This document shows, in pieces, positions 12,159-55,589 of a DNA stretch of 64,000 bases (its first letter is position 1; each line of letters opens with the position of its first letter). The translations under genes were made by a program, and so were the position numbers. The stretch comes from a virus (Duplodnaviria; Caudoviricetes), in the IMG/VR virus record IMGVR_UViG_3300029969_000013, positions 1-64,000 of that record; one strand, 5' to 3'. The notes under the pieces are model-generated. The model was not told the DNA's origin. It did not search any database and worked only from the letters and a program-made list of their open reading frames with translations.

Positions 12159-12578
12159 GTGAGCTATCATTATGAAAAAAAAATTAAAGCTGTTCCTGGA
12201 AAAGGTATTGTTGCAAGCGTAAACCCTTCTACTCGTAATTATGTTAAGGCTTCTACATCTGGTGCTAGTATACCAGCGCCGTTTAATAAGTACTACGATG
12301 TAGCCACCAGACAAGATTTTCAAGACATGGGTCTTGATACAGATTATTACATGGTTCCGTCTGATGCTTATGAAAATTACAGAGAATTGGAATTAATAGG
12401 CCATGCAGTTGCTAAGCCTGAGTATGAAGAGGCGCTAGGAGAATATTCATGTGTAGATATTGTTCGTGACAGCAGTTACAACAATTCTATAATGCTGGTA
12501 TTACCTGTAGGTGATCGTATATACGATGTTTCAATCAATGAAATTGAGGATCTTATAGATAATGCCAGTGATATCTAA
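12159..12578 (+). CDS. Leader-bearing acidic protein; likely true ATG (12172) is out of frame across an A9 tract
   Basis: Shares KAVPGKGIVAS leader with the next gene; the GTG start at 12159 lies inside the SD. Confidence 0.6.
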   Translation: MSYHYEKKIKAVPGKGIVASVNPSTRNYVKASTSGASIPAPFNKYYDVATRQDFQDMGLDTDYYMVPSDAYENYRELELIGHAVAKPEYEEALGEYSCVDIVRDSSYNNSIMLVLPVGDRIYDVSINEIEDLIDNASDI

Positions 12579-12650
12579 TTAACTATATTATCAAGAGGTG
12601 TTATTATGAGAAAATTTAAAGCTGTTCCTGGAAAAGGTATTGTTGCAAGC
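12184..12650 (+). repeat. Exact 35-bp direct repeat (12184-12218 and 12616-12650) encoding the KAVPGKGIVAS leader
   Basis: TTAAAGCTGTTCCTGGAAAAGGTATTGTTGCAAGC occurs twice. Confidence 0.9.
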
Positions 12651-13049
12651 ACTAATACAAACAAGAAACGTCGTCCTATAACTGCTTCTTCTACATCAGA
12701 TGAACAGATGTTCCAGAAGTATCACAATGAACTCATCAATGAGTATGAAAACGGTGATGCTGTTTCAGATGAATTAGATCTATGGATTGAAGAAACACTT
12801 ATGTCTGCAGTTCTGACAGCAGCTGAAAATGCATATGGTGCTGACGGCATTGAATTCTTTGCAGAGCCATCCGGCCAAGGGGGCAGAGGCGAAGATTTTG
12901 TAACACTCACATATCCAGATGGTTCAACTGAGGACTTTACAATTGATTTACAAGATGAGTATCAAATGGCAGCAGATTGTATACGTGACGCAAACAGCTT
13001 CAAAGAATGTGTCAATATGCTCGCAGACGCTCTCTATCTTGATAGATAA
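12606..13049 (+). CDS. Leader-bearing acidic protein (putative internal head protein)
   Basis: MRKFKAVPGKGIVAS..KKRRPITASS leader followed by a D/E-rich domain. Confidence 0.7.
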   Translation: MRKFKAVPGKGIVASTNTNKKRRPITASSTSDEQMFQKYHNELINEYENGDAVSDELDLWIEETLMSAVLTAAENAYGADGIEFFAEPSGQGGRGEDFVTLTYPDGSTEDFTIDLQDEYQMAADCIRDANSFKECVNMLADALYLDR

Positions 13050-13051
13050 GT

Positions 13052-13570
13052 ATGAAACGATTTATATCATGTTCTACACATAATGACATTCAATACGTAG
13101 AGGAAGATCACAAGTTATTATCTTCTATAGGATATGATGCTGTATATCAAATACGATCTAGTGTTGAACCTTTTGTAACTAAATGTTGCAATGCTATATG
13201 GGATTCATTACCTGAAGTAGGACCTATGGAGTACTATATAGATAAAGAGTTTGACACCCGGAGTAGATTATATACTAAGGGCATTGGTCTGAAAGGTATC
13301 ATCGCATACATGCCTACGCATGAAGAAGATACAAAAGGAGATCCAATCATACCTGAAGATTGCATATCTGGTAGATTATATTCAGTGATTATTCGTCCAC
13401 AAGATAAATCATTATCTACTGGAATTCCTGTCGATTGTGAGGTAGATGGATATATCATTACTTTTGAAAATTCGTATGCTGTCGGAATGTGTGATAATGA
13501 TGACATTAATCTGAAAGATGCTGTAAATAAGTTTATACTTAGATACAATGCTCATTTCAGACGTAAATAA
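13052..13570 (+). CDS. Hypothetical protein with MKRFISCS leader
   Basis: Coupled ORF. Confidence 0.7.
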   Translation: MKRFISCSTHNDIQYVEEDHKLLSSIGYDAVYQIRSSVEPFVTKCCNAIWDSLPEVGPMEYYIDKEFDTRSRLYTKGIGLKGIIAYMPTHEEDTKGDPIIPEDCISGRLYSVIIRPQDKSLSTGIPVDCEVDGYIITFENSYAVGMCDNDDINLKDAVNKFILRYNAHFRRK

Positions 13571-13590
13571 ACATTAAACAATATACATCT

Positions 13591-13636
13591 AAAGGCCTCA
13601 ATTGTTATCTCTAAGAGTTATACATTTGAGGCTTTT
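13591..13636 (+). terminator. Rho-independent terminator
   Basis: AAAGGCCTCAA...TTGAGGCTTTT inverted repeat followed by a T-run. Confidence 0.7.
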
Positions 13637-13666
13637 GTTATACATTGGAGAATAAGGAGTGATATT

Positions 13667-14014
13667 ATGAAACGAAAAATCTTAGCAGCTAGGGGATTCA
13701 AACGAGCAGCTGAAAAATATGCTGATAGTTTAAATGATAGTATTTTTGAAAATAGTAATATGTATTATGCAACTGTTGATACTAAAAGAAAACTTGTAGT
13801 AATATGTGATAAGCATACTGATAATGTTGTGACTGAAATTCGACTTAAGACTGTCCCTATTGACGTTACAAATTCTGAATATCGTCTTGCAACACCTAAA
13901 GAAATTTCAAAAGGTATTGGTTTATATGTACGAGATAAGCACAGCTCTAGTACAGAGAAATATATTCCAGAAGCCGAAGAAACAACTTCAATTGCAAATA
14001 GATACAGAAGATAA
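13667..14014 (+). CDS. Hypothetical protein with MKRKILAA leader
   Basis: AAGGAG SD. Confidence 0.7.
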   Translation: MKRKILAARGFKRAAEKYADSLNDSIFENSNMYYATVDTKRKLVVICDKHTDNVVTEIRLKTVPIDVTNSEYRLATPKEISKGIGLYVRDKHSSSTEKYIPEAEETTSIANRYRR

Positions 14015-14075
14015 CAGAACCTTATATATAAATGTAATTGAACTCACCTAAAACTTTTAAGGAGTGTGTAAATTT

Positions 14076-14891
14076 ATGATTTCAGAAAAAATCGAACTGT
14101 TAGGTAAAGGCTTGTACTCTGATATACCAGATGTACTTACACTTACAAATATTCCTACTGCATCTGAACTTGACTGCGTTGGCGGAGAAGATTTTGACAA
14201 AGTAATGTTAGATACAATCTTGCCAGAAGCTGTTGAAGAAAAAATCAATTTTTATGACTTGTTAGAGATTGATTATCAGTGGGTATGTAGATGTTTACGT
14301 CTGCTTAACTTTGGACCGTATTATACTACAAATGCAATATTCTGTAGCAAATGCGGAAAAACTTCATACGGAGAGTATCAAGTTAATTTGAATACTATTG
14401 CATGTAATCCAATTCCAGATGGATTTGTAAATGATATCATAATTACAAAGGATGAATTTTTAGATTTCAATGGTGATATCACACTTAAGCTTCCAACAAT
14501 TCGTACTATTAATACTGCCTACAAGGATAAAGCATTCCAGCTTGCAAACGGCAGCACAAATAGAGAGCTTGCAAGAATTTGCTATATGATCAAATCCATC
14601 AAAGGTAAGTCTAATCTTACTCCTATTGATATAAAGCTGATGATTCAGCAGCAGTTATCAGCAGCGGATTATATTATCCTCAAGAATAAAGTAACTGAAA
14701 TGACTGATTTTGGTCTGCGAGCTGGTGGTGTAGCACAGTGTCCTTCATGTGGACATGATCACGCTGCATTCATTGCACTTCCAGATGATCGTTTCTTTCG
14801 TCCGACCATGGGAAATCTCAAACAGTGGCAGCTCGATAAACGTTCAGGGAAAAATGAAGACGTTTCAAGAAATACGTCAACAAATGTATGA
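14076..14891 (+). CDS. Baseplate hub/tail assembly chaperone (T4 gp26-like, Zn ribbons)
   Basis: CSKC and CPSC pairs, LLEIDYQWV..LRLLNFG pattern, upstream of tape measure. Confidence 0.6.
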   Translation: MISEKIELLGKGLYSDIPDVLTLTNIPTASELDCVGGEDFDKVMLDTILPEAVEEKINFYDLLEIDYQWVCRCLRLLNFGPYYTTNAIFCSKCGKTSYGEYQVNLNTIACNPIPDGFVNDIIITKDEFLDFNGDITLKLPTIRTINTAYKDKAFQLANGSTNRELARICYMIKSIKGKSNLTPIDIKLMIQQQLSAADYIILKNKVTEMTDFGLRAGGVAQCPSCGHDHAAFIALPDDRFFRPTMGNLKQWQLDKRSGKNEDVSRNTSTNV

Positions 14892-15060
14892 GAACATAAT
14901 CGATGAAACTTTATTCATTGCACGAGCTTCTGAGGGTGCAGTTTCTGCTGAATGGATAATGGAACAGCCAATATTCATACGAAAGAAATATGTTGATTCA
15001 TTTACTAAAGAGTTAAAAGAACGTGAACGTGCATTGAAAAATAATGGTAAGAAGCGTTAA
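14854..15060 (+). CDS. Small tail/baseplate assembly protein (T4 gp51-like)
   Basis: SAEWIMEQPIFIRKKY pattern, just before tape measure. Confidence 0.5.
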   Translation: MKTFQEIRQQMYENIIDETLFIARASEGAVSAEWIMEQPIFIRKKYVDSFTKELKERERALKNNGKKR

Positions 15061-15066
15061 GCATCA

Positions 15067-15102
15067 ATGAGGGATGGGATTGAATAGTCCCATCCTCATT
15101 TT
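15067..15102 (+). terminator. Rho-independent terminator
   Basis: GAGGGATGGGATT-GAAT-AGTCCCATCCTC hairpin followed by T-run. Confidence 0.75.
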
Positions 15103-15136
15103 AATATGTTGTGTGTAAAATGGAGGTGTATGCAAT

Positions 15137-18100
15137 ATGCCAGATAACAACAATGGAAACAATCCTTCAAATGCAGGCTCTGGTAGCAACCCTGATATAT
15201 TATCTTCTTTACAAGGATATATCAATAATACTAATACTAGTAGAAATAATGCTATAGCATTGTTGAAGTCTATTGACCAAACTACTAAACAAATATTGCA
15301 GTCTGGTGGTGGAATGTCTGCATCTAATGCACAGAACATGATGCCAGGCGCACGTGGTAGCAATACTTATTTTCAAAGTCGTACAAACTACAGTAGTCGT
15401 GGATTAGGTGGAGGGGGTTCTTTCAGACAGTTTACAGATAATCTGCAAAAAACTATGATGGAAGAACTCATCGGAAATGAATTCAAAAACAGCTTACGTG
15501 ATATACGAGATAAGTTAGCTCGAGATTTAGGTGTAAATGTAGAACAAGTTCCTGCTGAGCTTGGAAAAATGCTTGGTGGTAAATTAGCAGGTGCTATCAA
15601 AAATTTAAAGCCTGTAGATGAAGCAATTGGATCATTTAAGGATATTGTATCCGGTAAATTCAATGACATTAAGAATGCTTATGTACGAGGTCGTAATAAT
15701 AATTATGCAAGCACACATGATGGTGCTGCATATAATCCACAACGGTCAAGTGCAGCTACTATACGTGATGCTATTAGAACACCTTCAGGAACATCTATGT
15801 TCGGAGGAGGATCTACACCTGGTAGTAATAATAGAGCTGCTTATAATATACAAGCTCAAACCGTTATTATACGTGCGAACAGTATAATACAAGAGTCTGA
15901 AAGACCTGAAGGGTTACAAGGTAATTTATCGGATGATGCACTCTCTAGCATATTAGATTTGCTAGGAGGTGGTAGCAGTGTTGATGACATGGTAAATGGT
16001 ATTTCATCAATACTGAAAGGTAGTGCATCTTCAGCCGGTGCTGCTGGTGCTGGAGCCGCAGGTGCTGGAGCTGCAGGTGCTGGAGCTGCAGGTGCTGGAG
16101 CTGGAGCTGCCGGAGCTGCCGGTGCTGGAGCAGGAGCTGTCGGTGCGGGTATTACTGAAGCATTAGGTGCATTATCTGCAGTTGCTCCTGAAATATTACT
16201 TATCATAGGTGCAGTAGTTGCTGCTACTATGGTCTTTGACGCATTAGTAGATGCAGTCAAGCCAATGATAGAAGGTTCTAAGAAGCTGTTTAAATCGTTG
16301 TCAGATGCTGCAAATCGTTATGAAAAGAGTAGAGAAGAAGGCTTAAAAGCAGCAGAGGCTCGAATGAAAGCTGATTTTGAGACAGTAATTCGTGAGCCAT
16401 TCAAGATACTAGAAGACGCAGCTCAAAATTTATATGATGCATGGGATCAAAATGTAAGAATTATTAATGGTACACAAGGTTATAATAAAGATCAGCTATA
16501 TGACTTGATAGGAGGTTTTGCTGATCGTTTAAGAGCAGAGGGTCTTGAACGTGTTGTTAGTACTGATACAGTTACTACTAATCTTGCAAAAGTATTAGAA
16601 TCTGGATTAAGTGGTTCAGTTGCAGAAGAATTTGCATATTTAGCTACAAAACTGAATGCCGCTATTCCTACTGAAGACTTTTTCAACTATGCTAGTACAT
16701 ACAGTTCTATTGCTGCTAATGCAATTCAACAAGGTAAGTCTCAATCCGAAGCTATTTCATATGCTAATAGTCAACTGGAGTCATTTGCAAGTAACTTGTT
16801 ATATGCAAGCCGAGAAATATCAGGTGGCTTTACAACTGGTCTTAAAGATGCAAATACATTGTTCCAACAGTCTGTTCAGATTGCACAAGCAAGTAAGACT
16901 AATAATGCTACTCAGATTTCAGGTGTAATGACTGCAGTATCTGCAATAGTCGGTGCAGTTGCTCCAGATCTTGCAACGTCTATGACAGATGCTATCTATA
17001 AAGCTGCAACAGGTGGTAACAGTTCTGAAATTGTAGCGTTACGTTCGCTTGCAGGTATCAATGCATCTAATACTGAATTCTTGAAAAAGCTTTCTGAAGA
17101 CCCACAAGGCGTGTTTACTAATTTATTTGATAACTTGGGCAATATGCAGAAAATGTCCCAAGATTCATATATGGAAGTTGCAGAAGGTTTATCTAGTGTA
17201 TTTGGTGTATCTATGGATGCATTTGCTCGTGTGGATTTCAATTATCTAGCACAAGCAATATCTTCTATGAATACTTCTAATGGTTTATTAGAAGAGAATT
17301 TAGAATTACTTGCATCAGGTGAAACTACTACTAATGCTGAGCAACTTAGAATGCAGCAAATAAATGAGTACATGTGGAATGAAGGTCTTGCATATGTAAT
17401 GGATAACGCTGCTGCTAGAGAGATTCAAAAGCATATGTGGGACGAGCAAATTGCTCGTGAGCTTATGGAGTCCGAATATAGTGTAAACATTAAAGGTGCT
17501 GCACTTGAATTTTTAGAAGGTATCAGAAAAACCATTGATAACATTCTTGGTTTTTTGAATCCTTTCAAAATGTTCAGCAAACTTTCTAATTTAGTAGGTA
17601 GTATAGAAGAAGCTGGAGCACAAGATGTAGATGTTAAGCAACTACTTGAATTAGGTAAACTGGGCGGTGGCAATGCTACAGCATTATATCAGCTTACTAC
17701 TAGAAACGCAGATCTAAATCTAACTGAGAATTTAGTAAATATGATGGGTGGTGTATCTGCATACAACATTGCATCTACTAAACGAAAAGTTACTAGCGAT
17801 TTATTGTATACTGGTTGGAACAACTTATTTGATGCTACATATGGTGGACAAGGTATGAATGCATTATATGCATTAGTGTCTACTGGAGCTGGTAAAGCTG
17901 GTCAAGGTATTTCATCATTGTTCAATGGTAAGTCTGCATACAGCTGGGGAACTATAGGTAAGAGTACAGCAAGTGCATTATCATCAACTGCTAGTTTATC
18001 TGCATCTTCTACATCAACAGGGTTAGCTGCAATTTCATCTGAACAAAAGGAAGCATCAGCAACTGCACAAGCTCAAAAAGTAGCAACACAGAATTTAACC

Positions 18101-18739: not shown

Positions 18740-18792
18740 TATAACCTTCTATATTTATACACATCTAAATATAGAGAATTGGAGGTAAATAT

Positions 18793-21615: not shown

Positions 21616-21632
21616 TTGGGGGTGCTTATATC

Positions 21633-22268: not shown

Positions 22269-22282
22269 GGTGGTGATAATAA

Positions 22283-36432: not shown

Positions 36433-36771
36433 ATGGATGAAATTATGTTTACACCTGCAGCTGTATTGGATCTTCTGACCCAAATTGAAGAGTTACGTGG
36501 GTATGATATTGGTATAGATGATTCTTCTAATATGCTACGAGTTACAATTGGAGATTCAATTTACAACATAAATACTCGTAATACAACTGACATATCTGTA
36601 GATGAATCTGTCGTAGATGATGTTGAACTTGTAAATCAATCAGCTTATGATAATTTATCAGATTCTGGTGAAGTTGAACTTGAGCCAATTAATTCTGGGT
36701 TGATAAAACAAGTAGCAAAAACTCTATTAGTTGGCGGTCTTGTCAGACTAACTGCAAAGCTTTTGAAGTAA
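36433..36771 (+). CDS. Acidic hypothetical protein in the head module
   Basis: GAGGTGA SD. Confidence 0.65.
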   Translation: MDEIMFTPAAVLDLLTQIEELRGYDIGIDDSSNMLRVTIGDSIYNINTRNTTDISVDESVVDDVELVNQSAYDNLSDSGEVELEPINSGLIKQVAKTLLVGGLVRLTAKLLK

Positions 36772-36784: not shown

Positions 36785-38125
36785 ATGAGGGCACGTGTAA
36801 AAGATAAGCCTATAATTGATGCATCAGATACACCCATATTAGGTACATATGAAGGTGAAGCATTAGATACTAATATTACAAACAACAATGGTTTGGATAT
36901 TACTGCAGAGGTAATTAAACAAGTTTTAGCATCTGACGAATATGCACAAGGTCTTGAAAACGGTTGGTTCATCGGATTCCTAGGTCATCCAGAAGATCCA
37001 AACTGTATGGATTTTAAAGATGGATGTATTGTATTAACTGATATGTCAATAGATGATAACGGCAAAGTTTATGCTAAATTTAATCTTATTGATACACCAG
37101 TAGGTAGAATTGTAAAGACTCTTCAAGATGCTGGAGTAGTATTTGGAATTTCTATAAGAGGGGCTGGAGATATTGTAGGTAACTCTGTAGACCCAGATAC
37201 TTTTGTATTTAGGGGATATGACCTTGTTTCATTTCCAGCATATCCAGACTCTATTCCTACATTTACAGCAATTGCAGCTTCTACTAATCTAGAAGACAGA
37301 AAGAAGTATCAAGCTGTATGTGCAGCTGTTAAAAATAATCTGTCTACTATAACAAGTGCATCTACTATAGATGTATTGAAATCTCAATTTGCACCTCAGT
37401 CAAATGAATATAAGTTGCTAGAATCTAGACAGACTGAGCTAGATGTTGACATTGTAGATGATGTAAATGCACAGAAGATAGAAGCAATGACTCAGCTGTA
37501 TTTAGATGCAATGCAAAATGTAACTTCGTTGGCGAAACAGCTTGAATCTGAAAAGAGACAAAATGCTTCTATATCATCTGCAACTCGTCGTAAATTAGCA
37601 GCTGTTGAAAGAATAACTGCAAGTCAGCTGCACGATGCTCTTTCTGAATTAGATTCTATAAAGGCATCTTATAGGGATATGAAGCATAAGAATGCTATAT
37701 TAGGTGCTAAATTATCTGAAGTAAAAAAGACTAACCTTATATATAAACAGAAGGTAGAATCAAGTACATCCGAACTCAGAAAGAAGAGTAGAATTATTGC
37801 AAGTCTTCAAAGGGAGCTTAGTGAAACCGTCACAGCAAGTTCTAAGATCAAGGCAAGCGCATCTAACCTAGGTGTAAGTAATGAACGTCTTCAAGATGAG
37901 GTGAACATTTATAAAAATCAGCTTGATTCTTATCAACAAGCTTATGCAAGTATGTATGCTGCTGCAGTTGGTGTAGATCCAGGACATCTTCCTATCACAT
38001 CTTCTACGTCTATAGAAGATTTACAAGATATGATTGAAAATGCAACAAATACAGCAGGAATGTCTTCGATGATAGAACCTGTATATATCGAAGATGAAGA
38101 TGATACAGATATTGCAACCTTGTAA
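36785..38125 (+). CDS. Prohead maturation protease fused to a coiled-coil scaffold domain
   Basis: GFLGHPEDP (His), GISIRGAG (Ser), YDLVSFPAY as in T4 gp21/HK97-clan proteases; long coiled-coil C-terminus. Confidence 0.85.
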   Translation: MRARVKDKPIIDASDTPILGTYEGEALDTNITNNNGLDITAEVIKQVLASDEYAQGLENGWFIGFLGHPEDPNCMDFKDGCIVLTDMSIDDNGKVYAKFNLIDTPVGRIVKTLQDAGVVFGISIRGAGDIVGNSVDPDTFVFRGYDLVSFPAYPDSIPTFTAIAASTNLEDRKKYQAVCAAVKNNLSTITSASTIDVLKSQFAPQSNEYKLLESRQTELDVDIVDDVNAQKIEAMTQLYLDAMQNVTSLAKQLESEKRQNASISSATRRKLAAVERITASQLHDALSELDSIKASYRDMKHKNAILGAKLSEVKKTNLIYKQKVESSTSELRKKSRIIASLQRELSETVTASSKIKASASNLGVSNERLQDEVNIYKNQLDSYQQAYASMYAAAVGVDPGHLPITSSTSIEDLQDMIENATNTAGMSSMIEPVYIEDEDDTDIATL

Positions 38126-38173: not shown

Positions 38174-39649
38174 ATGGCAATTAAGAGATCGTCTCGTAGA
38201 CCTATTGCGTCTAGCGTAAATAGACGTAGACCTATTACAGCTGGTACAAGCATTACTTCTGGTGCTAGAAGTAAGAAAGCTCCAAATTCTAAGATAATGG
38301 CAAGCTTCAATGCATTGAATCCAGCACAGAGAGCATTTGTTCGTCAGCTGCAGTCAACATGTCGTAAGCATTCATCTATCATGGGTGCAACTAATACATC
38401 TAATATTGCTGCAAGACCTGAATTCATGGAACTCCTTCCATTATTCGTTCAGAAGCTGCTTATTCTTGATGTATTCGGATCTGTTGCAATGAAGTCCAGA
38501 CAGCAGATGATTCCGTATTTCAAGTTTATAGCTGAAAACACTAAAGGTGAAACTGCTAAGGGTACAATCTTGTCAAGCCCAATGGTTCAGAGACAGGGTC
38601 TTGATCCAAACTTCACAGGACGTGTTGTTAAGAATGAAGTTATCGGTTCGGGTGTGCTTACAGCAGCTGCTGATACAGTTATTGCATCGTTTGCATATCT
38701 TCCTGTACTTCCTGGTTCTGTTACAATCGAAACAAATAAGAGCGGTACTACTACATCTTATGTAGATAATGGCCTTGGTGAAATTCTTGACAGCACACAG
38801 ACTACAATTGCTAATATCAACTACAGCACAGGCGAAATTACACCTGTTACAGCTGGTGTTACACCTCTTACACTCGCAAGCGGCGATACAATGAAGGCTA
38901 CATATCAGTATGACAATGAGACTGTAGGCCCAAATGCCGAAGGTAATTACGGTGCTCAGATGGGTAAGGGTTATCTACAGCTTGATGAATTCAATCTTAT
39001 TGCTGAAGCACATCAGCTTGCTTGCTACTGGTCAATCTATTCTGCATTTGCAGCTCAGACAGAATACGGCAGCAACATTGCAGATGTTGCCAAGGAAGCA
39101 GCATTCTCTGAACTTACAGCTGAGATTAACACAAAAGGCTTCCAGGAACTTGAAAAGGCTGCAAGCTTCAAGCCGCAGTATAACTGGGATGCATCTCCAG
39201 TTCTTACAGGTTCTGTTGTGCCTTCTGATTATCTCAACATGTTCAAGCTCAAGCTGAACCAGGCATCTTCTGCTATTTATCAGGCAACTAATCTGTCACG
39301 TGGTAACAGACTTGTAGTCGGTTCTAACGTAGCTGCTTATGTTGCAATGATTGATAACTTCGTTGCAGACAGCACAGAAGATACAGTAGGTCCATATAAG
39401 CTTGGTCGTCTTGATCAGTTTGAAATTTATGTAGATCCTGCTTACGATCCTAATAAGTGGGTAATGTGCTGCAAGTCTAACGACATTAGACGTAACTCTG
39501 CACTGTTTGGTGAGTACATGCCATTCACAGATACACAGGCAATTGGTCTTGCTAACTCTAGCGTTCAGCAGGGCTACGCTACAATGTATGCTATGAAGGT
39601 TGTAAACCCAGCAACAGTTGTCAGTGGTAAGATTACAGGCGTATTTTAA
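38174..39649 (+). CDS. Major capsid protein (T4 gp23-like) with basic propeptide
   Basis: EAHQLACYWSIYSAF, ELTAEIN, GYATMYAM motifs; directly after the protease; optimised codons. Confidence 0.88.
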   Translation: MAIKRSSRRPIASSVNRRRPITAGTSITSGARSKKAPNSKIMASFNALNPAQRAFVRQLQSTCRKHSSIMGATNTSNIAARPEFMELLPLFVQKLLILDVFGSVAMKSRQQMIPYFKFIAENTKGETAKGTILSSPMVQRQGLDPNFTGRVVKNEVIGSGVLTAAADTVIASFAYLPVLPGSVTIETNKSGTTTSYVDNGLGEILDSTQTTIANINYSTGEITPVTAGVTPLTLASGDTMKATYQYDNETVGPNAEGNYGAQMGKGYLQLDEFNLIAEAHQLACYWSIYSAFAAQTEYGSNIADVAKEAAFSELTAEINTKGFQELEKAASFKPQYNWDASPVLTGSVVPSDYLNMFKLKLNQASSAIYQATNLSRGNRLVVGSNVAAYVAMIDNFVADSTEDTVGPYKLGRLDQFEIYVDPAYDPNKWVMCCKSNDIRRNSALFGEYMPFTDTQAIGLANSSVQQGYATMYAMKVVNPATVVSGKITGVF

Positions 39650-40883: not shown

Positions 40884-41219
40884 ATGTTCATTCAGAAGAA
40901 AGGCATTAGAAGAAGAGTTATGGCGGAGACTGATGTAGCACCTGATGCTGCAGAGCTGTTATTCCAGGCTGAAGATGTTGCTGAGCTTGTTGCTGAGGTT
41001 ACCGGTGAAGTTGTTGAAGTTGAAGCTGACGACGCAGGTGAGTCTGTTACATTCAATGTCGGCGAAGAGGCATTTACAGTTGAAGCTGAAGGTACAGAAG
41101 AGACTGTTGAATCTTCTACACGTCTTGCTCGTTCTAAGAGACCTGTATCTGCATCTACTAAGCGTGGTACTGTTGGAAGAAATAGCAGAACTGTACGTAA
41201 GGCACCTCGCAGAAGATAA
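40884..41219 (+). CDS. Acidic protein with basic C-terminal tail (RPVSAS), putative internal head protein
   Basis: AAGGAGG SD; E/A/V-rich body. Confidence 0.65.
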   Translation: MFIQKKGIRRRVMAETDVAPDAAELLFQAEDVAELVAEVTGEVVEVEADDAGESVTFNVGEEAFTVEAEGTEETVESSTRLARSKRPVSASTKRGTVGRNSRTVRKAPRRR

Positions 41220-41247
41220 TCGTTATATAATATGTAAATACGACATA

Positions 41248-41283
41248 AGGCTTCTAAGTAATATCGCTTGGGAGCCTTATTTA
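41248..41283 (+). terminator. Rho-independent terminator
   Basis: AAGGCTTCTAAG...CTTGGGAGCCTT followed by a T-rich tail. Confidence 0.6.
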
Positions 41284-41303
41284 CTACATTTGAGGTGATA
41301 ATT

Positions 41304-42311
41304 ATGAATGTTAAACGTACTAAGAGACAACCTGTATTAGCAGGAGAAACATTGAAGAAGCTTACAAGTTTCTTAAAAGGTGTATCTGAGAAGCTGTTTA
41401 ATCTATTTGATACGTTAGGTGATGAAGGCTTGAAGATTATAGATCAGAAAGATACGCAAGACGGTGGTCAATGGTTAAAGTTAGAATATAACGGTAATAA
41501 TGCTGAAATAACAATTACACCTGCAGACGATAAAGGTGTATTCAATATTATCTTGAAATCTCCAATGGGTGGTACAACTAAGTTTGACAAGATAAGCGAA
41601 GCGGATATTGATACTAAAGTTAAGTCAGCGTTGAAAGATATATTCAGTAGCACACAGCTGAGTTTTTCTAATCCTAATAAGCTTAAAGTTACATTACAGA
41701 GTGTAACATCGGCAACAGGTGTAGACATTAATTTAACTGCAATCAAAGCTAATTATGATACATCGGCAGCTATTCAAGATTTGGAAGCTATACTAGGTGA
41801 CGATGATTTTGTATCGCAAGTTACAGCTGAACCTATTTCATTTGAAATCACAGATAATGGTGAATGCTTTGATATTGAAGAAACATGCAGCTTTGACACT
41901 TCGGATACAATTGTACAGCTTATTCAAGCAGCAATGCAGTTATGGGCTAACTTAAAAGTTATCCATTGGGCTGCTAGAGGCTTAAATAGTTTTGAGCTGC
42001 ATTCAAAATCAGATAACTTAGCATTCTGGGTGATGAATGATGTAGACTGCTTTGGAGAGTATCTTGTTGAATTTAAATGCCCTGCAGTTAATCCATTACT
42101 AAATCAATGTAATTTATCGTTGATATCAGACCAGCAAGGATTTAATGCCGAAGAAGGATATTGTATAATGAAGTCAGAAATTTCTAAATATGTAAACATA
42201 TTAGAAACATTATATGTTAACTTTCCGCATGATTTCCAAAGTGTTCTTGATAACATGATAAGAACTTGGAAGAAAGAATCTGAATATTTCCTCACAAGAG
42301 CTACAATGTAG
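41304..42311 (+). CDS. Leader-bearing protein with C-terminal Dps/ferritin-like domain
   Basis: IHWAARGLNSFELH...VDCFGE matches the Dps HWxxxGxxFxxLH..D..E pattern. Confidence 0.65.
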   Translation: MNVKRTKRQPVLAGETLKKLTSFLKGVSEKLFNLFDTLGDEGLKIIDQKDTQDGGQWLKLEYNGNNAEITITPADDKGVFNIILKSPMGGTTKFDKISEADIDTKVKSALKDIFSSTQLSFSNPNKLKVTLQSVTSATGVDINLTAIKANYDTSAAIQDLEAILGDDDFVSQVTAEPISFEITDNGECFDIEETCSFDTSDTIVQLIQAAMQLWANLKVIHWAARGLNSFELHSKSDNLAFWVMNDVDCFGEYLVEFKCPAVNPLLNQCNLSLISDQQGFNAEEGYCIMKSEISKYVNILETLYVNFPHDFQSVLDNMIRTWKKESEYFLTRATM

Positions 42312-45470: not shown

Positions 45471-45509
45471 ATAGGAGTGCAGGTCACATAGATCTGCACT
45501 TCTTATTTT
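45471..45509 (+). terminator. Rho-independent terminator
   Basis: GGAGTGCAG...CTGCACTTC hairpin followed by T-run. Confidence 0.65.
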
Positions 45510-45585
45510 ATGAATCGTTATGTATTGTATAGTAAATAAAAATATAATTTACTATATGAACAAAACGTAAAAATACTAAGGAGTT

Positions 45586-46266: not shown

Positions 46267-46285
46267 ACTATAAAGGAGTAATAAC

Positions 46286-46645: not shown

Positions 46646-46714
46646 TCGTTATTGTACATGTAAATATGTTATGAACATGTATTTGACTATTTTATTAATT
46701 CATAGGAGGTAAAC

Positions 46715-48535: not shown

Positions 48536-48549
48536 ACGGAGGTGTATAA

Positions 48550-48780
48550 ATGAAACGCAGAGTAATATCAGCTCAAGCTATAACAGCTGCTGAAAATGAT
48601 TCAGCATTTGATGATATCATTGGTAATATCAAAGCTGATTTTGAATATATTATAGACGGACTTGAAACTCTTAATCGTAGAGGTGCAGATTCTGTAAAGC
48701 AAGCGATGTCTATTGCTACTAGCATAAGTGCTGACCTTGAACAGCACATTGCTGCAGTAGCTGATTCTATTACAAAGTAA
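48550..48780 (+). CDS. Leader-bearing small protein (MKRRVISAQAITAAE)
   Basis: GGAGGTG SD; basic leader and acidic helical body. Confidence 0.7.
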   Translation: MKRRVISAQAITAAENDSAFDDIIGNIKADFEYIIDGLETLNRRGADSVKQAMSIATSISADLEQHIAAVADSITK

Positions 48781-48795
48781 TTGAGGTGTATTTAT

Positions 48796-49779
48796 ATGAA
48801 AAAGTTTAAGAAGTATCCATCAAGTATTAAAGCATCGACAGGAGGTCGTAATAGGAAGAAATATGTTCAAGCTGCAGAAAGCGATTACATCAAAATCGGT
48901 AACATGATGATTCCAAAGAATGCTGCGTCTTATGGATATGATAGCTACGAAAATATTGCACGAGATGCAAAGCAGCGTTTGGACATTGAAAGAGAAACTA
49001 AACGTAAGGCAGACGAAGCTGCTGCAAAGGCTGCAAAAGCTAATGATATAAAAGCCAAAGGTGCAGCGTTGTATCAAGAATGTAAAGAAGCTATATCTGA
49101 TGCATCTTCTGATAAAGATAAGGTAAATGCTTTGTTCGATATCTTAGTACCAGATTCTGGAAAATCTGATACGCTTGCAGGTGAGATCATAAGAGCTGTT
49201 ACTCGAATCGGTTATAGATGGTACAATGACGGAGATTATTTCTATACAGGATATGGTCTTGAAACATGCGGCTCAGATGCTGCATTCCTTGCAGATATTA
49301 TCGGTGGTGATACGTTCGATTTAATTGTAGATGCTACAGATAATATGGGAGATGAACAAAGATATGATATGTTCATAGAAGATCTTACACACGATGTATT
49401 AGATTATGTTATGGACAATCCCGATATATTTGGAGTTGAATCTACGTATGACTCTCGTAACTATACAAGTAATACTTTAGACGAAATAAAAGAAAATTCT
49501 AAAAATATGGAATTTGAGCCTGATGTATATGGTTTTGCAGAGTTTGTAGATAGCGGTATTATATCCTGGAGCGATGTTGAATATTGGTTACAAGAACTAA
49601 CTAGTTACTATGGTGGTACTGTTAATGCGTGGGCAAGAGATGGATTCACTATAGTTGATATAGATATGGATCAATATGACGAATGGGAAAATATGTACGA
49701 AAAAGAGTTGGATTCTTACATGTCTGAGCTTGAATCTGAGCTTGAAAACGACGAAAATTACGATGAAGATGAGGAGTAA
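48796..49779 (+). CDS. Leader-bearing acidic protein (SIKAS, VQAA)
   Basis: GAGGTG SD; very D/E-rich body. Confidence 0.75.
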   Translation: MKKFKKYPSSIKASTGGRNRKKYVQAAESDYIKIGNMMIPKNAASYGYDSYENIARDAKQRLDIERETKRKADEAAAKAAKANDIKAKGAALYQECKEAISDASSDKDKVNALFDILVPDSGKSDTLAGEIIRAVTRIGYRWYNDGDYFYTGYGLETCGSDAAFLADIIGGDTFDLIVDATDNMGDEQRYDMFIEDLTHDVLDYVMDNPDIFGVESTYDSRNYTSNTLDEIKENSKNMEFEPDVYGFAEFVDSGIISWSDVEYWLQELTSYYGGTVNAWARDGFTIVDIDMDQYDEWENMYEKELDSYMSELESELENDENYDEDEE

Positions 49780-49785
49780 TGTTAT

Positions 49786-50049
49786 ATGAAGAGAATTTAT
49801 TCAGCTCTTAATAAATATACAGAATACAGCATTTCTGATGTAGAAAGGGAGCTTCTCAATCGTATTGGATCTAGAGTCGGGGCTGAGTCTGCTATTATCG
49901 TGAATCTCGGTACAGGTGAAGCGGGTGTAATCTCTGAAACTGCTGATGGTGATATTGTACTTGATAACTTAGATACTGGAAAGCGTACATGGGATGCACA
50001 AAATGTAATTGAAGAGGTGCTAACATCATGGGACAAATCTATTAAGTGA
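49786..50049 (+). CDS. Leader-bearing small protein (MKRIYSA)
   Basis: GAGGAG SD. Confidence 0.7.
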   Translation: MKRIYSALNKYTEYSISDVERELLNRIGSRVGAESAIIVNLGTGEAGVISETADGDIVLDNLDTGKRTWDAQNVIEEVLTSWDKSIK

Positions 50050-50057
50050 GGTGCTGT

Positions 50058-50297
50058 ATGAAACGATTTATCAAATGCTCTGCTAATACGTGTAAAGCTA
50101 CAGGTCGTACTTGGTCTGAATTTATCCGAAATATAAAATCTGCTTTAGGATATGAAGTAGATTCTGCATATCGTAGATCACCTGATCAGTTCATATTGAT
50201 GTATTTAGATGGTGCAGAATATGAAGGTGAAGTAACTAGATATTCAGACGGCACATATGAATTGGTATGTGATAACATATATCCAGCTAGGATGTAA
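50058..50297 (+). CDS. Leader-bearing small protein (MKRFIKCSA)
   Basis: GAGGTG SD. Confidence 0.7.
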   Translation: MKRFIKCSANTCKATGRTWSEFIRNIKSALGYEVDSAYRRSPDQFILMYLDGAEYEGEVTRYSDGTYELVCDNIYPARM

Positions 50298-50312
50298 CTA
50301 AAGGAGATAGGC

Positions 50313-50804
50313 ATGAAGTTCAATGTTGATACTAGTATAGGTAAGAAAGCAGAGGCTAAAATAAAGGAATGGTTAGATAAGCCTGAAGAAGGATATTGCT
50401 TCGACAGAATACCTGACCAGATGACTGGATTTTATGGTTCTAAAAACATATGTGATTTCACATTATTCAAGTCACCTAACATGTACTACATTGAATCTAA
50501 AGCTACATGGGAAGATAGATTCGACTTCTCTATGCTAACGCCTACTCAACATGATGGGTTGCTAAAGAAGTCGAAAATTCCTAATGTATATGGAGTAGTG
50601 ATTGTGTTATTTGCACATCATCAACGTGCATTTATAATTGATATAAATGAAATCAAGCGTCTTGAAGATTCAGGGAATAAGTCTATCAATATCAAGAAGA
50701 TTGACAATTGGGGCATTACATATACAGAGGTTCAGACAATACCAAATAGTCGTAAAACATTTCTTGATTATACTGGAGAGTTTGCTGTAAAACCAAGTCC
50801 TTAA
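50313..50804 (+). CDS. recU: RecU-like Holliday junction resolvase
   Basis: PD-(D/E)XK motif CDF..YYIESKAT, FDFSMLTPTQ. Confidence 0.75.
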   Translation: MKFNVDTSIGKKAEAKIKEWLDKPEEGYCFDRIPDQMTGFYGSKNICDFTLFKSPNMYYIESKATWEDRFDFSMLTPTQHDGLLKKSKIPNVYGVVIVLFAHHQRAFIIDINEIKRLEDSGNKSINIKKIDNWGITYTEVQTIPNSRKTFLDYTGEFAVKPSP

Positions 50805-50873
50805 ATTGCGAATCGTTATATAATGTAACATCATAACAATCAAATATATGTTATGAAGACTGGAGGTTACATT

Positions 50874-51479
50874 ATGAAAGAGAACAAATTACACTATGCA
50901 GCATTTGGAGAGCTTGAGAATGCATTCTACAATGAGCACTATAATCTTGAAATAAGCGAAAATGGTGATCTTGAAGCAACAGCTTTTGAAGATGCAGATA
51001 TGATGCCTAAAATCGCTATTCATAAATCTGAAGTTGATGGTAATTATTACTACTCAGCTGCACTATCGTTTCCTTTACTCGATAGCACAGAAATGGAATT
51101 CTATGACAGTATTGCGTACTGGATGAAGCGTTGGAGTGATATTGGTCATATCATAACTATGCTGGATCAGTTTGTATATAATCCATCTTTGTATGAAGAC
51201 GAAGAAGAAAATGCAGAAGATTCGGCAGATGATTGTGGTATTCAATCTGTAATAGAGTTTATCAATTCTGATAACTTTGACATTGGTTGGTTCGTATGTG
51301 ATATGTACAATGGTAATGCTAGCTCAACTGGAGATGCATTTAGACAGCTTATAGTAGAATCGGCTATCAAATATCTCAATGATGCTTGCAGCGGAAATAA
51401 TGGACTATGTCATGATGCTATAAATAGTACAGAAGTTCATAAGACGCTTTGGGACATGACCGAAGGTTATAAAGTATAA
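50874..51479 (+). CDS. Acidic hypothetical protein
   Basis: GGAGGT SD, class B promoter motif upstream. Confidence 0.7.
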   Translation: MKENKLHYAAFGELENAFYNEHYNLEISENGDLEATAFEDADMMPKIAIHKSEVDGNYYYSAALSFPLLDSTEMEFYDSIAYWMKRWSDIGHIITMLDQFVYNPSLYEDEEENAEDSADDCGIQSVIEFINSDNFDIGWFVCDMYNGNASSTGDAFRQLIVESAIKYLNDACSGNNGLCHDAINSTEVHKTLWDMTEGYKV

Positions 51480-51503
51480 ATTTTATACAAACAATCGTTA
51501 AAT

Positions 51504-51540
51504 AGTATGCACGTCTATCTGATGTGCATACTTTATTTTT
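51504..51540 (+). terminator. Rho-independent terminator
   Basis: AGTATGCAC...GTGCATACT followed by T-run. Confidence 0.7.
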
Positions 51541-51645
51541 AAGAGGTTTGATGCTATGAAGAACTATATAGTTGGTGCAGTTGTAGCGACTGTAAAATGT
51601 GATTCGTTATATAATATGTAACAAATTACAACGGAGGTATTTAAT

Positions 51646-52551
51646 ATGTATAATCTTGATGTTATATCAAAAGGAGAATTTCGTTTCTGGTTCAAGCGAA
51701 GAGGTATATCCTGCGTATGGGATGTTTTTGAAATGACTAAAAATATCAATGATGCAGATGCTGTACCGCTTACAACATACTATGAAGAGAGTGATCTAAT
51801 TGATCTAATTGATGATTTTGAAACTGAAGATTCTAACATCTTTGATGAAATTCGTAAAGAGTTCAATATGTTCCGAGAACAGAGACCTGAATATGGTGTC
51901 GGCATTCCTATTGATGTTCGTCTTATTTCTGATTGCGAATGTTCTGATGAGCTGCTTGAAGAACGACAGTATGTTTTTGAAAAGTTGCTTACTGCGGTAA
52001 TTGCTATGCAAGAAACAGGCGACCGTGGTATTGATTATGCACGTAGATGTATTAATTGGCTGAGAAATGGAGATTTTTATACAGCTCCTGCGTCTACAAG
52101 ATTCCATGAAGCTGAACCTGGCGGTCTTCTTAAACATACACTTAAAGTTGTAAATGCTATTTATCAGATCAGCGTTGTAGACTCTTTCAGCGAAGTGAAG
52201 TTACATGAAGCAGTACTGGTAGCTCTTGCACATGATTGGTGTAAGATTGGAACATACGAAATGTACATGAGAAATGTTAAAGATGATGCTACTGGAGTGT
52301 GGAACAAAGTCCCTTCATACAGGAAAGTTGAGTCCCCTATTCCATTTGGTCATGGTACATCATCTATGTATACTGTACAGAAATTCGTTCATCTGACCAT
52401 GGAACAAGCGTTAGCAATCAGATGGCATATGGGTAGGTGGTATGTATCTGATTCTGAAATTAATGAACTTCAGCATTCAAATGAAATCTATCCACTTGTC
52501 CATATGATTCAGTTTGCCGATCAGCTTGCAATCACATCTTATTTTCACTAA
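51646..52551 (+). CDS. HD-domain phosphohydrolase with N-terminal extension
   Basis: APASTRFH..GGLLKHT, LAHDWCK, IRWHMG, QFADQ. Confidence 0.85.
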   Translation: MYNLDVISKGEFRFWFKRRGISCVWDVFEMTKNINDADAVPLTTYYEESDLIDLIDDFETEDSNIFDEIRKEFNMFREQRPEYGVGIPIDVRLISDCECSDELLEERQYVFEKLLTAVIAMQETGDRGIDYARRCINWLRNGDFYTAPASTRFHEAEPGGLLKHTLKVVNAIYQISVVDSFSEVKLHEAVLVALAHDWCKIGTYEMYMRNVKDDATGVWNKVPSYRKVESPIPFGHGTSSMYTVQKFVHLTMEQALAIRWHMGRWYVSDSEINELQHSNEIYPLVHMIQFADQLAITSYFH

Positions 52552-52576
52552 AATATTAAACATATTATGATAATAC

Positions 52577-52605
52577 AGTAGGCGTTCAAACTGGACGCCT
52601 ATTTT
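52577..52605 (+). terminator. Rho-independent terminator
   Basis: TAGGCGTTC...GGACGCCTA followed by T-run. Confidence 0.7.
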
Positions 52606-52648
52606 GTATAACCTTTAATATCATAGAACATATATTAGGAGGTATACT

Positions 52649-53302
52649 ATGGGTTACATTCCGACTACTATAAAACAGTATGCAAACGAAGACATAAATG
52701 CTGCACTGAAAGCAGTATCAAACAACATGAAGTTATCATCAATGTCATTTGATAAGGACGGCGTAGATAAAAATAGCGATGAATATACTGTGTATGCAAC
52801 AGCTATTATTGCATGTCCAGATCTCAAATTACAATTTGAGTTCATAATGGAATATGTAGTAACATCAGACGGTTCTGTATATGCAAGTGGTACAGTTGAT
52901 GAGTTTGCTGATTCACTTGAAGATAGATATGCTGCTTGCGAATCTGGTGAAGATGGTGAACCTATCACCGCATCTACTAGAGTCAAGCGACAACCTATCA
53001 TGGCAGCAGAAGACGAAGATGAATTCATAGACACTGTAGATGATCTTTCAGATAGTGTAGATGATATACAAGATACGCTTGATGAGATTGACGGAACAGA
53101 AATCGAAGAAGATGAAGTTGATATTGAGGTTGATAACAATATCGCCAATCATTACATTGCAGAATGTGATACGTGTCATGGGCTTTTCATTTCAGCGTTG
53201 ATTGAATCAGATCAAGAAGTTGAAAAGGTATCTGGTGTCTGCCCACTCTGTAATAAAGATACAGATCAATATCTAAAATTTATCGTGCGTCCTATTGAGT
53301 AG
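52649..53302 (+). CDS. Two-module protein: internal PITAS/RQPIMAA motif, acidic linker, C-terminal Zn ribbon
   Basis: CDTC and CPLC pairs; preceded by the class A promoter motif. Confidence 0.7.
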   Translation: MGYIPTTIKQYANEDINAALKAVSNNMKLSSMSFDKDGVDKNSDEYTVYATAIIACPDLKLQFEFIMEYVVTSDGSVYASGTVDEFADSLEDRYAACESGEDGEPITASTRVKRQPIMAAEDEDEFIDTVDDLSDSVDDIQDTLDEIDGTEIEEDEVDIEVDNNIANHYIAECDTCHGLFISALIESDQEVEKVSGVCPLCNKDTDQYLKFIVRPIE

Positions 53303-53317
53303 AGGGAGGTGTGGTAA

Positions 53318-53785
53318 ATGGATTGGAGTTCTATATTTGTTGCGAGTTTACCAGTAATATCGGCTGTGCTCGTAGCAGTTCTAAATAATTGGGAAAAGAT
53401 CAACCCAAGTAAACGTAAAATAAATGAAATGTATAAACTTGTATCCGATCTTAAATCGGAATTACAGTCGAACAGTCAACAGTTTGATGAGTTATCTAAA
53501 CAAGTAAGATCTGTATCGTCTGCACAACGTATAAGTTTGCAAACTAGAATCCTTGAATACTGTAAAAAGATTCAAAATTCTATAGATGACGGAGAGATAG
53601 ATTACCGTGAAGATTTGAAGCAGCTTATCATATTATATAGGGAATATTATCTATGTGGGTACAACAGCCAAGGTAGATTATACTTCAATGATACTATTCA
53701 AAAAGCAACAGACGATAACAATACGCTTGTTCATGAGCTTATGACTACATATTTTTCAGAATACGACCCAGATGCACATATTTAA
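53318..53785 (+). CDS. Membrane-anchored coiled-coil protein (holin-associated type)
   Basis: N-terminal hydrophobic helix followed by a coiled coil; adjacent to the holin candidate. Confidence 0.5.
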   Translation: MDWSSIFVASLPVISAVLVAVLNNWEKINPSKRKINEMYKLVSDLKSELQSNSQQFDELSKQVRSVSSAQRISLQTRILEYCKKIQNSIDDGEIDYREDLKQLIILYREYYLCGYNSQGRLYFNDTIQKATDDNNTLVHELMTTYFSEYDPDAHI

Positions 53786-53797
53786 GGAGGAGTAATT

Positions 53798-54181
53798 ATG
53801 TGGAATCAAATATTATCAGCAGTGTTAGGTATCGCAATAACAGCACTTGGTACAGTAATTACTACAGTGTTGTTACCGGCATCATGTAATTGGCTGAAAG
53901 CTAAAACACATAGCCAGCATTTACAATCCGTTATTGATGATATAACATTTACAGTTCAGTCTAGTGTAGATATGCTGGAACAGACAGTTGTAAAGCAGCT
54001 TAAGGAAGAAAAATCCTGGAATGCAACATCTCAAGCACAAGTTCTAGAAACAGCTGTAACTGAAATAGTGACGAATTTATCAAATCAGACATTTGACATA
54101 TTGAAAGCAGAAGGTTATAATATTGAAACTTTGGTAAAGCGTCACATTGAAGCATATATTCAATCTAAGAAAATAATTTAG
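53798..54181 (+). CDS. Putative holin (LL-H-like)
   Basis: Single N-terminal TM helix; EQTVVKQLK..AQVLETAV pattern. Confidence 0.6.
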   Translation: MWNQILSAVLGIAITALGTVITTVLLPASCNWLKAKTHSQHLQSVIDDITFTVQSSVDMLEQTVVKQLKEEKSWNATSQAQVLETAVTEIVTNLSNQTFDILKAEGYNIETLVKRHIEAYIQSKKII

Positions 54182-54191
54182 AGGTGATTTC

Positions 54192-55589
54192 ATGCGAATA
54201 ATCAGATCGAATCGCAATATTAATGCTGCATCTATGCCGCCTACTCCTTATGATATTGGACCTGAAGATCCTAAGGAGTATAGCAAGCTCGATGAGTTTG
54301 ATTCTGAATTAGAGCTGTACTTTGATGAGCCTATAACTATTGATGAGGATGGTTATGTTGAGCTTACAGGTACAGAGTATATGCTCAATCCTGCACCAGA
54401 CCGAATGGGCATGTATCTTGACTATGATTACAATGTTGAGATAGCAGATGCCGATGACATATATGATCGACTTGGCGATGAATTAAATGCTATAGGCATA
54501 GGTTCTAAATATGCACCTGGAACATACAAAGTGACTGGTATTATCAATCTAGTTTCTTCTGTTAGCGGCATAGAATATGATGACGAATATTCTGGTGTTG
54601 ATGAAGACGGTGATCCAATTGTAGATAGGTCTTATTATAAAGATGATTCAGACTACACTATCAAATCATTTATAGTATCTGATGTAAAAGTATCTGGTGC
54701 TACTATAAACAGCTCTACAACTGTAGTAGGATACGATGGCATTGATGAAGATAGCTGGAAGTATCTCCGTAGTAAGCAGGTAATAGACTCAGACGGTATG
54801 CTGACTGATTACACATTGTACAAAAATGCAGATGGTACACAGTTTATATGCATGTTTGGTGATAATGATTTGTATGAACCTGATCCTGATTATGCAGACT
54901 GGGAAGGTAGCTCCGAGGAGGAAGCTATTGAATGGTTTGACAATTACAGCAGCGGTTATGATGAATACGATGATATCTATGGTGCAGAGTCTGCAGATGA
55001 ATCTGATGCATATGATGAAATCAAAGAAATAGGCCAGGAGTTTACATCTGAAAATACATCCATTAACAGCGGTAGACTTCCAGCAGTGTTCAACATGGTA
55101 AATTTTGAACCTAGTACAGTCAACCTCGACTACGGCGGTGGTAAGTTTGACAATGTTGCAGAGTATCTTACACAGTATGATGTTATCAATCTTGTATATG
55201 ATCCGTACAACAGAACTGCAGAGCATAACAAAGAAGTCATTGGACTTATTCGTGAACATGGTGGAGCAGATACAGCTACATGTTCTAATGTGCTGAATGT
55301 TATCAAAGAACCGGAAGTTCGTTTGAATGTTCTTCAGAATATCAAGAAGCTTGTAAGACCTGGTGGTACTGTTTACATTACAGTATATGAGGGTAAAGGT
55401 AATGCAGCTGAAGGTCCTACAAAGTCTGGCTATCAACTTAACAGAAAGACAGCCGATTACATGGAAGAAATCCAGCAAGTATTTCCTGATGCAAGACGTA
55501 AGGGTAAACTTATCATTGCTACTAACAGTGGTGCTGTTACAAGCTCTACAGATTATGAGGATGATGACATCGAACTTATCACGCTGTAA
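54192..55589 (+). CDS. Leader-bearing multidomain acidic protein with C-terminal class I SAM methyltransferase domain
   Basis: NLDYGGGKFD (motif I), YDPYN, CSNVLNVI, VRPGGTVYITVYEG. Confidence 0.8.
   Translation: MRIIRSNRNINAASMPPTPYDIGPEDPKEYSKLDEFDSELELYFDEPITIDEDGYVELTGTEYMLNPAPDRMGMYLDYDYNVEIADADDIYDRLGDELNAIGIGSKYAPGTYKVTGIINLVSSVSGIEYDDEYSGVDEDGDPIVDRSYYKDDSDYTIKSFIVSDVKVSGATINSSTTVVGYDGIDEDSWKYLRSKQVIDSDGMLTDYTLYKNADGTQFICMFGDNDLYEPDPDYADWEGSSEEEAIEWFDNYSSGYDEYDDIYGAESADESDAYDEIKEIGQEFTSENTSINSGRLPAVFNMVNFEPSTVNLDYGGGKFDNVAEYLTQYDVINLVYDPYNRTAEHNKEVIGLIREHGGADTATCSNVLNVIKEPEVRLNVLQNIKKLVRPGGTVYITVYEGKGNAAEGPTKSGYQLNRKTADYMEEIQQVFPDARRKGKLIIATNSGAVTSSTDYEDDDIELITL

Follow-up and report, generated by a model that had tools for sequence, protein, structure and literature searches.

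We describe a short sequence code in an uncultured gut or rumen phage (Duplodnaviria; Caudoviricetes), of which a window of 64,000 nucleotides was analysed (positions 1 to 64,000 of IMG/VR record IMGVR_UViG_3300029969_000013). The motif [IV]-x-[ASCG]-[ASG] recurs in the basic propeptide of the major capsid protein, in the linkers of a protease–scaffold fusion and in short basic leaders at the N termini of unrelated, mostly acidic proteins, and we suggest from the sequences that motif and leader are probably the recognition and cleavage site and the head-loading tag of the clade's own T4 gp21-type protease. The original prediction had listed about 14 leader-bearing proteins and proposed a cleavage code, common to them and the capsid propeptide, that loads effectors for injection with the DNA. 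Every string that it quoted was found at the gene named, and the cleavage code is well supported comparatively (that is, by positional conservation, by homology to a Glu-type site and by the predicted disorder of the linkers that hold it); injection of the tagged proteins into the host is a further and weaker suggestion. Genes are named by the position of their first nucleotide, and ↓ marks a cleaved or predicted scissile bond.

The window is part of a 77-kb contig of a low-GC (~35%) myophage with all genes on one strand, and its clade, a large group of Firmicutes phages from gut and rumen, is uncultured. When the head genes were compared with 50,697 phage records by megablast, there was no match, and the nearest isolated phages, by capsid protein, reach a best identity of only ~25%, so that there is no close isolate. 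In IMG/VR, 47 related loci were found by capsid and more by way of synteny anchors (sheath, SNF2 helicase and portal), giving 70+ overall; one contig among these relatives is near-identical (L003, L050, L053), and the other capsids are 55–90% identical. Single-protein scans for relatives of 12606 and 52649 returned the same phage only.

Enrichment and conservation of the motif and leader

Within their first 30 residues, 25 of the 91 window proteins carry the motif; internal windows predict 14.5 (binomial p=0.004), and 0 of 1000 shuffles attain the observed count. In 18 of the 91 the motif has K or R at most three residues upstream (5.5 expected, p=7e-6). Bacillus phage HSE3, which is distantly related, has a capsid site of the Glu type and served as the single control genome, showed no enrichment of the N-terminal motif (9/111, ratio 0.81) and no case of motif plus basic residue (0/111). 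As had been claimed, the bodies of the candidates are mostly very acidic (median charge per residue -0.099 versus -0.030 in other proteins, p=4e-4) and unrelated (none of the 14 matched another by BLAST), and their residues 1–20 have a more basic composition than in other proteins (p=0.0015). The N-terminal placement holds for most of the listed proteins and fails for 40884 and 52649, in which the motif is C-terminal or internal.

Across relatives, the share of distinct orthologs that bear the motif within residues 1–30 is bimodal among families: it is high in the 48550 family (15/15), the capsid (30/34), the 41304 family (21/25, at 20–35% identity), the 54192 family (12/17) and the 48796 family (3/4), and lies at 0–0.2 in tail, baseplate and replication families. 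Among orthologs at 20–60% identity the motif stays put, the flanks diverge and body conservation starts directly after the motif. Over 1260 non-redundant N termini, motif density has its maximum at residues 5–8, at three times background; the logo shows I/V at position 1, A/S/C/G at position 3, S at 64% in position 4 and Y at 21% in position -1. An 8-residue leader, MK[RKIQ]x[IV]x[SAC][SAG], begins 42 distinct N termini from 28 unrelated families (mostly small, acidic singletons), and the same pattern built from other residue classes gives 0–1 hits. The stereotyped form is M-K-[RK]-[YVF]-[IV]-[KR]-[SAC]-[SA], with the consensus MKRYIK[SA]S. In the 41 DNA versions of this leader the Arg, Ile and Ser codons vary freely; selection therefore acts on the leader peptide, and a conserved nucleotide element is ruled out as the explanation.

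These counts bear directly on whether the pattern might reflect chance or composition, as a loose 4-mer of common residues at the Lys-rich N termini of an AT-rich genome. Such a motif is expected in ~16% of 30-residue windows, some of the listed cases are weak (13667 and 49786) and false positives exist in the window (the Walker A motif of helicase 55888 and the membrane proteins 53318 and 53798). Nevertheless, the shuffles, the unenriched control genome, the control residue classes and the conserved position of the motif in divergent orthologs largely refute this explanation, which we regard as very improbable.

A leader that is real and selected could also serve another function, either as a site for a host protease or as an uncut signal for localization, turnover or partner binding, its likeness to capsid and scaffold sites being a partial overlap. 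The phage protease as cutter of the leader is itself deduced, some tagged genes lie outside the head module and small residues at -3 and -1 fit signal peptidase I in general. However, no hydrophobic stretch of the Sec/signal peptidase I kind was found in the leaders (7–25 residues, basic and polar), which rules out a signal-peptide reading and makes export unlikely, and the Prp/L27-type host protease used by staphylococcal phages recognizes a different sequence. The cytoplasmic capsid propeptide and the scaffold linkers moreover contain the same motif, at a position that is homologous to a protease site of the Glu type, and we consider a different function of the leader improbable.

The capsid propeptide

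The best-conserved site of the capsid protein, SSIMG↓ATNT (residues 69–72), had been overlooked in the original listing. All 35 distinct orthologous propeptides hold 2–5 motif copies and an invariant final [IV]-x-[GA]↓ATNT, and all are basic in composition, with hardly any Glu (16 versus 457 K+R in 2384 residues). Distant capsids, gathered by a profile search of 1.84 billion representative proteins and then aligned, read [LIMV]-x-E↓[AST]T[QN] at the final site, where the clade has [IV]-x-[GA]↓ATN (for example, ILE-ATNSSNI in an outgroup and IMG-ATNTSNI in the window). The rule of T4-type head proteases is [LI]-x-E↓ (PMC5694885). Alignment to this outgroup site gives the register of the motif, with I/V at P3, a small residue in place of Glu at P1 (the residue preceding the bond) and A/S at P1', and homology to the T4-type x-E↓ site argues that the final site is the maturation cut. 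Because the propeptides are almost Glu-free, a Glu-specific cut cannot remove them. From these alignments, the P1 Glu of the T4 type seems to have been replaced by a small residue, giving the herpesvirus assemblin rule V/I-x-A↓S. The mature capsid protein is predicted to begin at A72, starting ATNTSNIAARPEF; in the AlphaFold2 (AF2) model residues 1–44 are disordered, a helix spans residues 50–64 and the fold begins near residue 93. Among PDB sequences, no match to the capsid was returned by phmmer or by profile search.

Two further distant capsid lineages have Ser at the aligned P1 (IRS↓ATN in P0005 and IPS↓ATQ in P0032), and the P0005 homologue has several [IV]-x-S-[SG] motifs upstream of the aligned site. 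By this comparison, the change from Glu may extend beyond the window's clade, or may have taken place more than once.

The protease–scaffold fusion

By Pfam and by fold, the protease is of the T4 gp21 type, and it belongs to the assemblin family neither by sequence nor by fold. The PF03420 (MEROPS S77) profile matches 25 of 27 orthologs at E<0.01 (best 1.2e-8) and the window protein at 26.0 bits, with the cut-off at 27. For the AF2 model of the protease domain, the best PDB match in Foldseek is T4 gp21 (5JBL; E 9e-7, TM-score 0.68–0.70, root mean square deviation 2.0, 136 columns), followed by weak matches to herpesvirus proteases (E 1e-3 to 1e-2, TM-score ~0.4); searches against PDB sequences returned coiled coils only and no protease match. 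H68 (in GHP) and S123 (in GISxRG) are invariant in 27 orthologs and presumably catalytic.

Residues 161–446 of the fusion hold 12 motifs where 1.6 are expected (p=1.5e-7). At the end of the protease domain the motif is present at the IAAS163 position in 31 of 35 orthologs, within a linker (165–168) of predicted local distance difference test score (pLDDT) below 50. Towards the C terminus it is present at the ITSS404 position in 27 of 35, in an unstructured loop (396–409) ahead of the acidic tail and a conserved hydrophobic C-terminal D[IL]VT[LM]. Further scaffold sites are also kept (VCAA in 27/35 and VTAS349 in 21/35 orthologs). HSE3 has a protease–scaffold fusion as well, with LTE↓S in the corresponding linker.

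Tagged proteins, variable islands and module shuffling

The features discussed here are collected in Table 1. For most tagged proteins no function was suggested by Pfam, PHROGs, NCBIfam or PADLOC, and for 48796 Atlas was blank as well. In the 48550 family all 15 distinct orthologs have one or two N-terminal motif copies followed by E/D, and in the 48796 family the motif stands directly before [DE][SD]DYI[KR]IGN in three of four. The 50058 protein is a member of the 8-residue leader class. The C-terminal site of 40884 is kept in nearly all of 28 distinct orthologs, and in two relatives (L068 and L038) 4–7 motif copies occupy both tails around a conserved acidic core. A 117-residue Leu-rich open reading frame that overlaps this gene (40945–41298) was rejected as spurious, being of low complexity, with the conserved family in the 40884 frame. 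Residues 200–335 of 41304 have three weak and independent ferritin/Dps leads (PHROG 3636, named 'DNA binding protein'; ferritin clusters of Atlas, at 0.82; and a match to NCBIfam Dps, E 0.007), and the C-terminal part of this protein may be ferritin/Dps-like.

In the T4-like portal, [IV]-x-[SG]-[GSA] at residues 25–29 is kept in 6/6 distinct orthologs seen; judged from sequence, it is a possible propeptide site and could equally be structural. The small acidic protein encoded directly upstream of the protease (36433–36771) has no leader in the window, and its family starts with MKK[VI]I[HN]AA↓EEE in the L015–L018 and L021 group (for example, L015:8180–8557); the leader is thus optional within this family.

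Variable islands follow the tail tube and the SNF2 gene and precede the protease, and the tagged genes that they hold differ between relatives. In the island after the tail tube, a 40-nucleotide direct repeat (12179–12218 and 12611–12650, 98% identical, spacing 432 nucleotides) encodes the leader common to 12159 and 12606. The near-identical contig (L050) is without the 12159 cassette, and this fits gain or loss of the cassette by recombination at the leader repeat. At the same island L051 and L052 carry different leader-bearing genes, and between 12606 and L052 only the leader aligns. At 12155–12222, the GTG start of 12159 lies within the Shine–Dalgarno sequence GGAGTGA. An ATG at 12172, with nine consecutive A after it, differs in frame from the leader KAVPGKGIVAS by one base; if this run were one A longer, the product would read MKKKIKAVPGKG..., which parallels the adjacent gene. 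The offset could stem from phase variation, from slippage or from an error of assembly.

Module shuffling takes place at motif sites or close to them. The twin site of 52649 is conserved among two-module orthologs, and no motif match was found in L072; the relatives L059, L060 and L069 lack the N-terminal module and begin with the motif as their leader. The methyltransferase module, which matches Pfam Methyltransf_23 just under the curated cut-off in 54192, stands behind two acidic modules in the window and directly behind a leader (MKILKITAS) in L064:17064–18470.

Proposed model and its weighing

We propose that the recognition motif is (Y)-[IV]-x-[A/S/C/G]↓[S/A/G] and that it is read by the gp21-type serine protease fused to its scaffold. 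Within the assembled prohead, the protease would first release itself from the scaffold at IAA↓S, then chop the coiled-coil scaffold and detach its capsid-binding tail at ITS↓S, and finally fragment and remove the basic 71-residue capsid propeptide, with IMG↓A72 as the last cut. A basic N-terminal leader of 7–25 residues would mark a methyltransferase and many small proteins that are unrelated, evolve fast and are mostly acidic, take all of these into the scaffold core of the prohead and then be cut off, by analogy with the capsid targeting sequence of T4. That the motif bonds are cut, and that the clade's own protease cuts them, is what the comparisons point to; entry of the tagged proteins into the head is suggested by the T4 analogy.

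Several observations weigh against this proposal. The bare 4-mer is low in information (IRGA at the catalytic Ser also matches), and the mature capsid body holds 9 motif matches against 2.4 expected, which cannot all be cleavage sites. An N-terminal leader on the protease itself occurs in only about one-third of orthologs, and the methyltransferase module forms a separate gene without leader in L062:17743–19131. Characterized gp21-type proteases all cut after Glu (PMC5694885). Judged on the substrates, cutting after Glu does not hold here, given the near-Glu-free propeptides and [IV]-x-[GA]↓ATN at the homologous site, and it is from these substrates alone that a change of protease specificity is deduced. 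The strong acidity of the tagged proteins sits awkwardly with packaging alongside DNA, and several of their genes are located among replication genes, so that other fates are possible for them; the acidity could reflect DNA-mimic or anti-defence roles and equally a scaffold-like fate.

Such a fate would follow if the prohead protease did cut the motif and the acidic tagged proteins were assembly helpers (that is, core or scaffold components like T4 gp67, gp68 and gp22) that are degraded and expelled on DNA entry, rather than cargo that stays in the virion or reaches the host. Scaffolds are strongly acidic too, the acidic core of 40884 between its many-site tails looks made for degradation, and the 36433 and 40884 families are located in the head module. 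Nonetheless, most tagged proteins are singletons or hypervariable and are encoded in variable islands at a distance from the head genes, a pattern that differs from that of essential assembly factors; one has a methyltransferase domain; and the leaders are short and single-site, leaving the body intact. We consider it unlikely that assembly helpers account for the tagged proteins.

A bolder extension of the cleavage-and-loading proposal, which we put forward only tentatively and think rather doubtful as a whole, is that a gp21-type lineage changed its P1 from Glu to a small residue, came to, or retained, the herpesvirus rule Y-[VIL]-x-A↓S together with the herpes-like layout of protease, R site, scaffold and M site, and uses the tag to load interchangeable effectors into the capsid for delivery with the DNA. 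These effectors would be dozens of mostly acidic proteins (possibly DNA mimics or anti-defence proteins) plus a methyltransferase.

Other features of the window

A 520-residue protein (3756–5318) combines a BRCT domain with a match to the C-terminal portion of NAD-dependent DNA ligase; its gene is located between the terminase and the portal, an unusual site for such a gene. The end of the window (62800–64000) and the contig on to ~66300 are gene-poor, with tRNA and tRNA-like genes.

Table 1 Features of the window, with predicted motif sites (only the start is given for some genes)
Feature	Position	Strand	Remarks
Large terminase	1792		Weak match
Portal, T4-like	5340..6833	+	Pfam Portal_T4
Tail sheath	9416		
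Tail tube	11577		
Four leader-bearing small genes after tail tube	12159..14014	+	12159 and 12606 (KAVPGKGIVA↓S, RRPITA↓S), 13052 (MKRFISC↓S), 13667 (MKRKILA↓A)
gp21-like prohead protease–scaffold fusion, 446 aa	36785..38125	+	gp21-like protease domain 12–162; coiled-coil scaffold 169–395; acidic C-terminal tail
IAAS, residues 163–166	37271..37282	+	Predicted release (R-like) site at protease domain end
Further scaffold sites	37316..37858	+	VCAA178, ITAS277, IKAS292, IIAS337, VTAS349, IKAS355
ITSS, residues 404–407	37994..38005	+	Predicted maturation (M-like) site ~40 residues from C terminus
Major capsid protein, T4 gp23-like, 491 aa	38174..39649	+	Pfam PF07068, E 2e-18
Capsid propeptide, residues 1–71	38174..38386	+	Basic, no Glu in window copy; PIAS↓S (11–14), PITA↓G (21–24), ITS↓G (27–30), KIMA↓S (41–44), final IMG↓A (69–72)
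Head–tail adaptor-like protein	40137		
Small protein with acidic core and basic tails, 111 aa	40884..41219	+	RPVSA↓S in C-terminal basic tail, residues 88–91
Conserved head-module protein	41304..42311	+	13-residue leader MNVKRTKRQPVLA↓G
Endolysin	43897		
SNF2 helicase	46715		
Acidic protein, 76 aa	48550..48780	+	Leader MKRRVIS↓AQAITA↓A
Very acidic protein, 327 aa, net charge -37	48796..49779	+	SIKA↓S, YVQA↓A, then ESDYIKIGN
87-aa protein	49786..50049	+	Begins MKRIYS↓A; L054 ortholog MKKIVA↓A; weaker support than others
79-aa protein	50058..50297	+	Stereotyped leader MKRFIKC↓S; L054 ortholog MKRYVKCS
Two-module protein, 217 aa	52649..53302	+	EPITA↓S and QPIMA↓A (106–120) in linker before acidic region and zinc-ribbon module
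Very acidic protein, 465 aa, net charge -60	54192..55589	+	Leader MRIIRSNRNINA↓A; C-terminal methyltransferase domain

Relation to known head-maturation systems

Judging by these sequence features, the system is a variant of the T4 capsid-targeting system, new in its small-residue P1. In T4, the internal proteins are diverse and have only a capsid targeting sequence in common (PMC3012670), and the earlier analogy to T4 leaders and internal proteins fits, given a conserved leader on hypervariable bodies. As with the T4 sequence (carried by IPI–III and Alt and removed by gp21), a short N-terminal leader is found on unrelated, fast-evolving proteins (PMC3012670, PMC5694885) and ends in the motif that the head protease would use on capsid and scaffold; the phage also shares with T4 a gp21-like protease, a gp23-like capsid and a gp20-like portal. 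Unlike in T4, the motif has a small residue (A/S/C/G) in the place of Glu, the leader (MKRYIK[SA]S) is basic rather than MKTYQEFIAE-like and sits on mostly acidic bodies, the tagged families are far more numerous (28+ in the sampled loci) and the protease is fused to the scaffold.

The order of N-terminal protease, scaffold and C-terminal tail, with predicted R-like and M-like sites, resembles the herpesvirus assemblin precursor (architecture in PMC8537868). The predicted cut in Y-[IV]-[KR]-[AS]↓S likewise resembles YLQA↓T and VQA↓S of pseudorabies virus (PMC4498786), and the predicted motif resembles the human cytomegalovirus substrate V-V-N-A↓S-S (bioRxiv 10.1101/2025.10.17.683123). By fold, however, the protease domain is much nearer to T4 gp21 than to assemblin (TM-scores as above), and unlike in herpesviruses the capsid protein has a predicted cleaved propeptide and many extra proteins are tagged. 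In phiKZ and SPN3US (proteases gp175 and gp245), many head proteins carry propeptides with multiple sites within them, as is predicted here, and the system also has ejection proteins and a protease that undergoes C-terminal autocleavage (PMC5694885, PMC10052503); extra sites within propeptides have been proposed to aid clearance (PMC5694885). Unlike the cuts predicted here, those proteases cut after Glu (A/S/G-x-E) in propeptides often longer than 100 residues, and their substrates have no stereotyped 8-residue leader.

Should the predicted cuts be borne out, a gp21-family protease would for the first time have been shown to act without the need for Glu at P1, and its rule would be that of the herpesvirus proteases themselves, which bears on the divergence of the phage and herpesvirus maturation machineries. 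If the tagging model is true, the 8-residue tag would make it simple to list by computer the proteins that virions of this clade deliver; these would be prime candidates for anti-defence functions, and the tag might be used to package foreign proteins into such phages, as has the capsid targeting sequence of T4.

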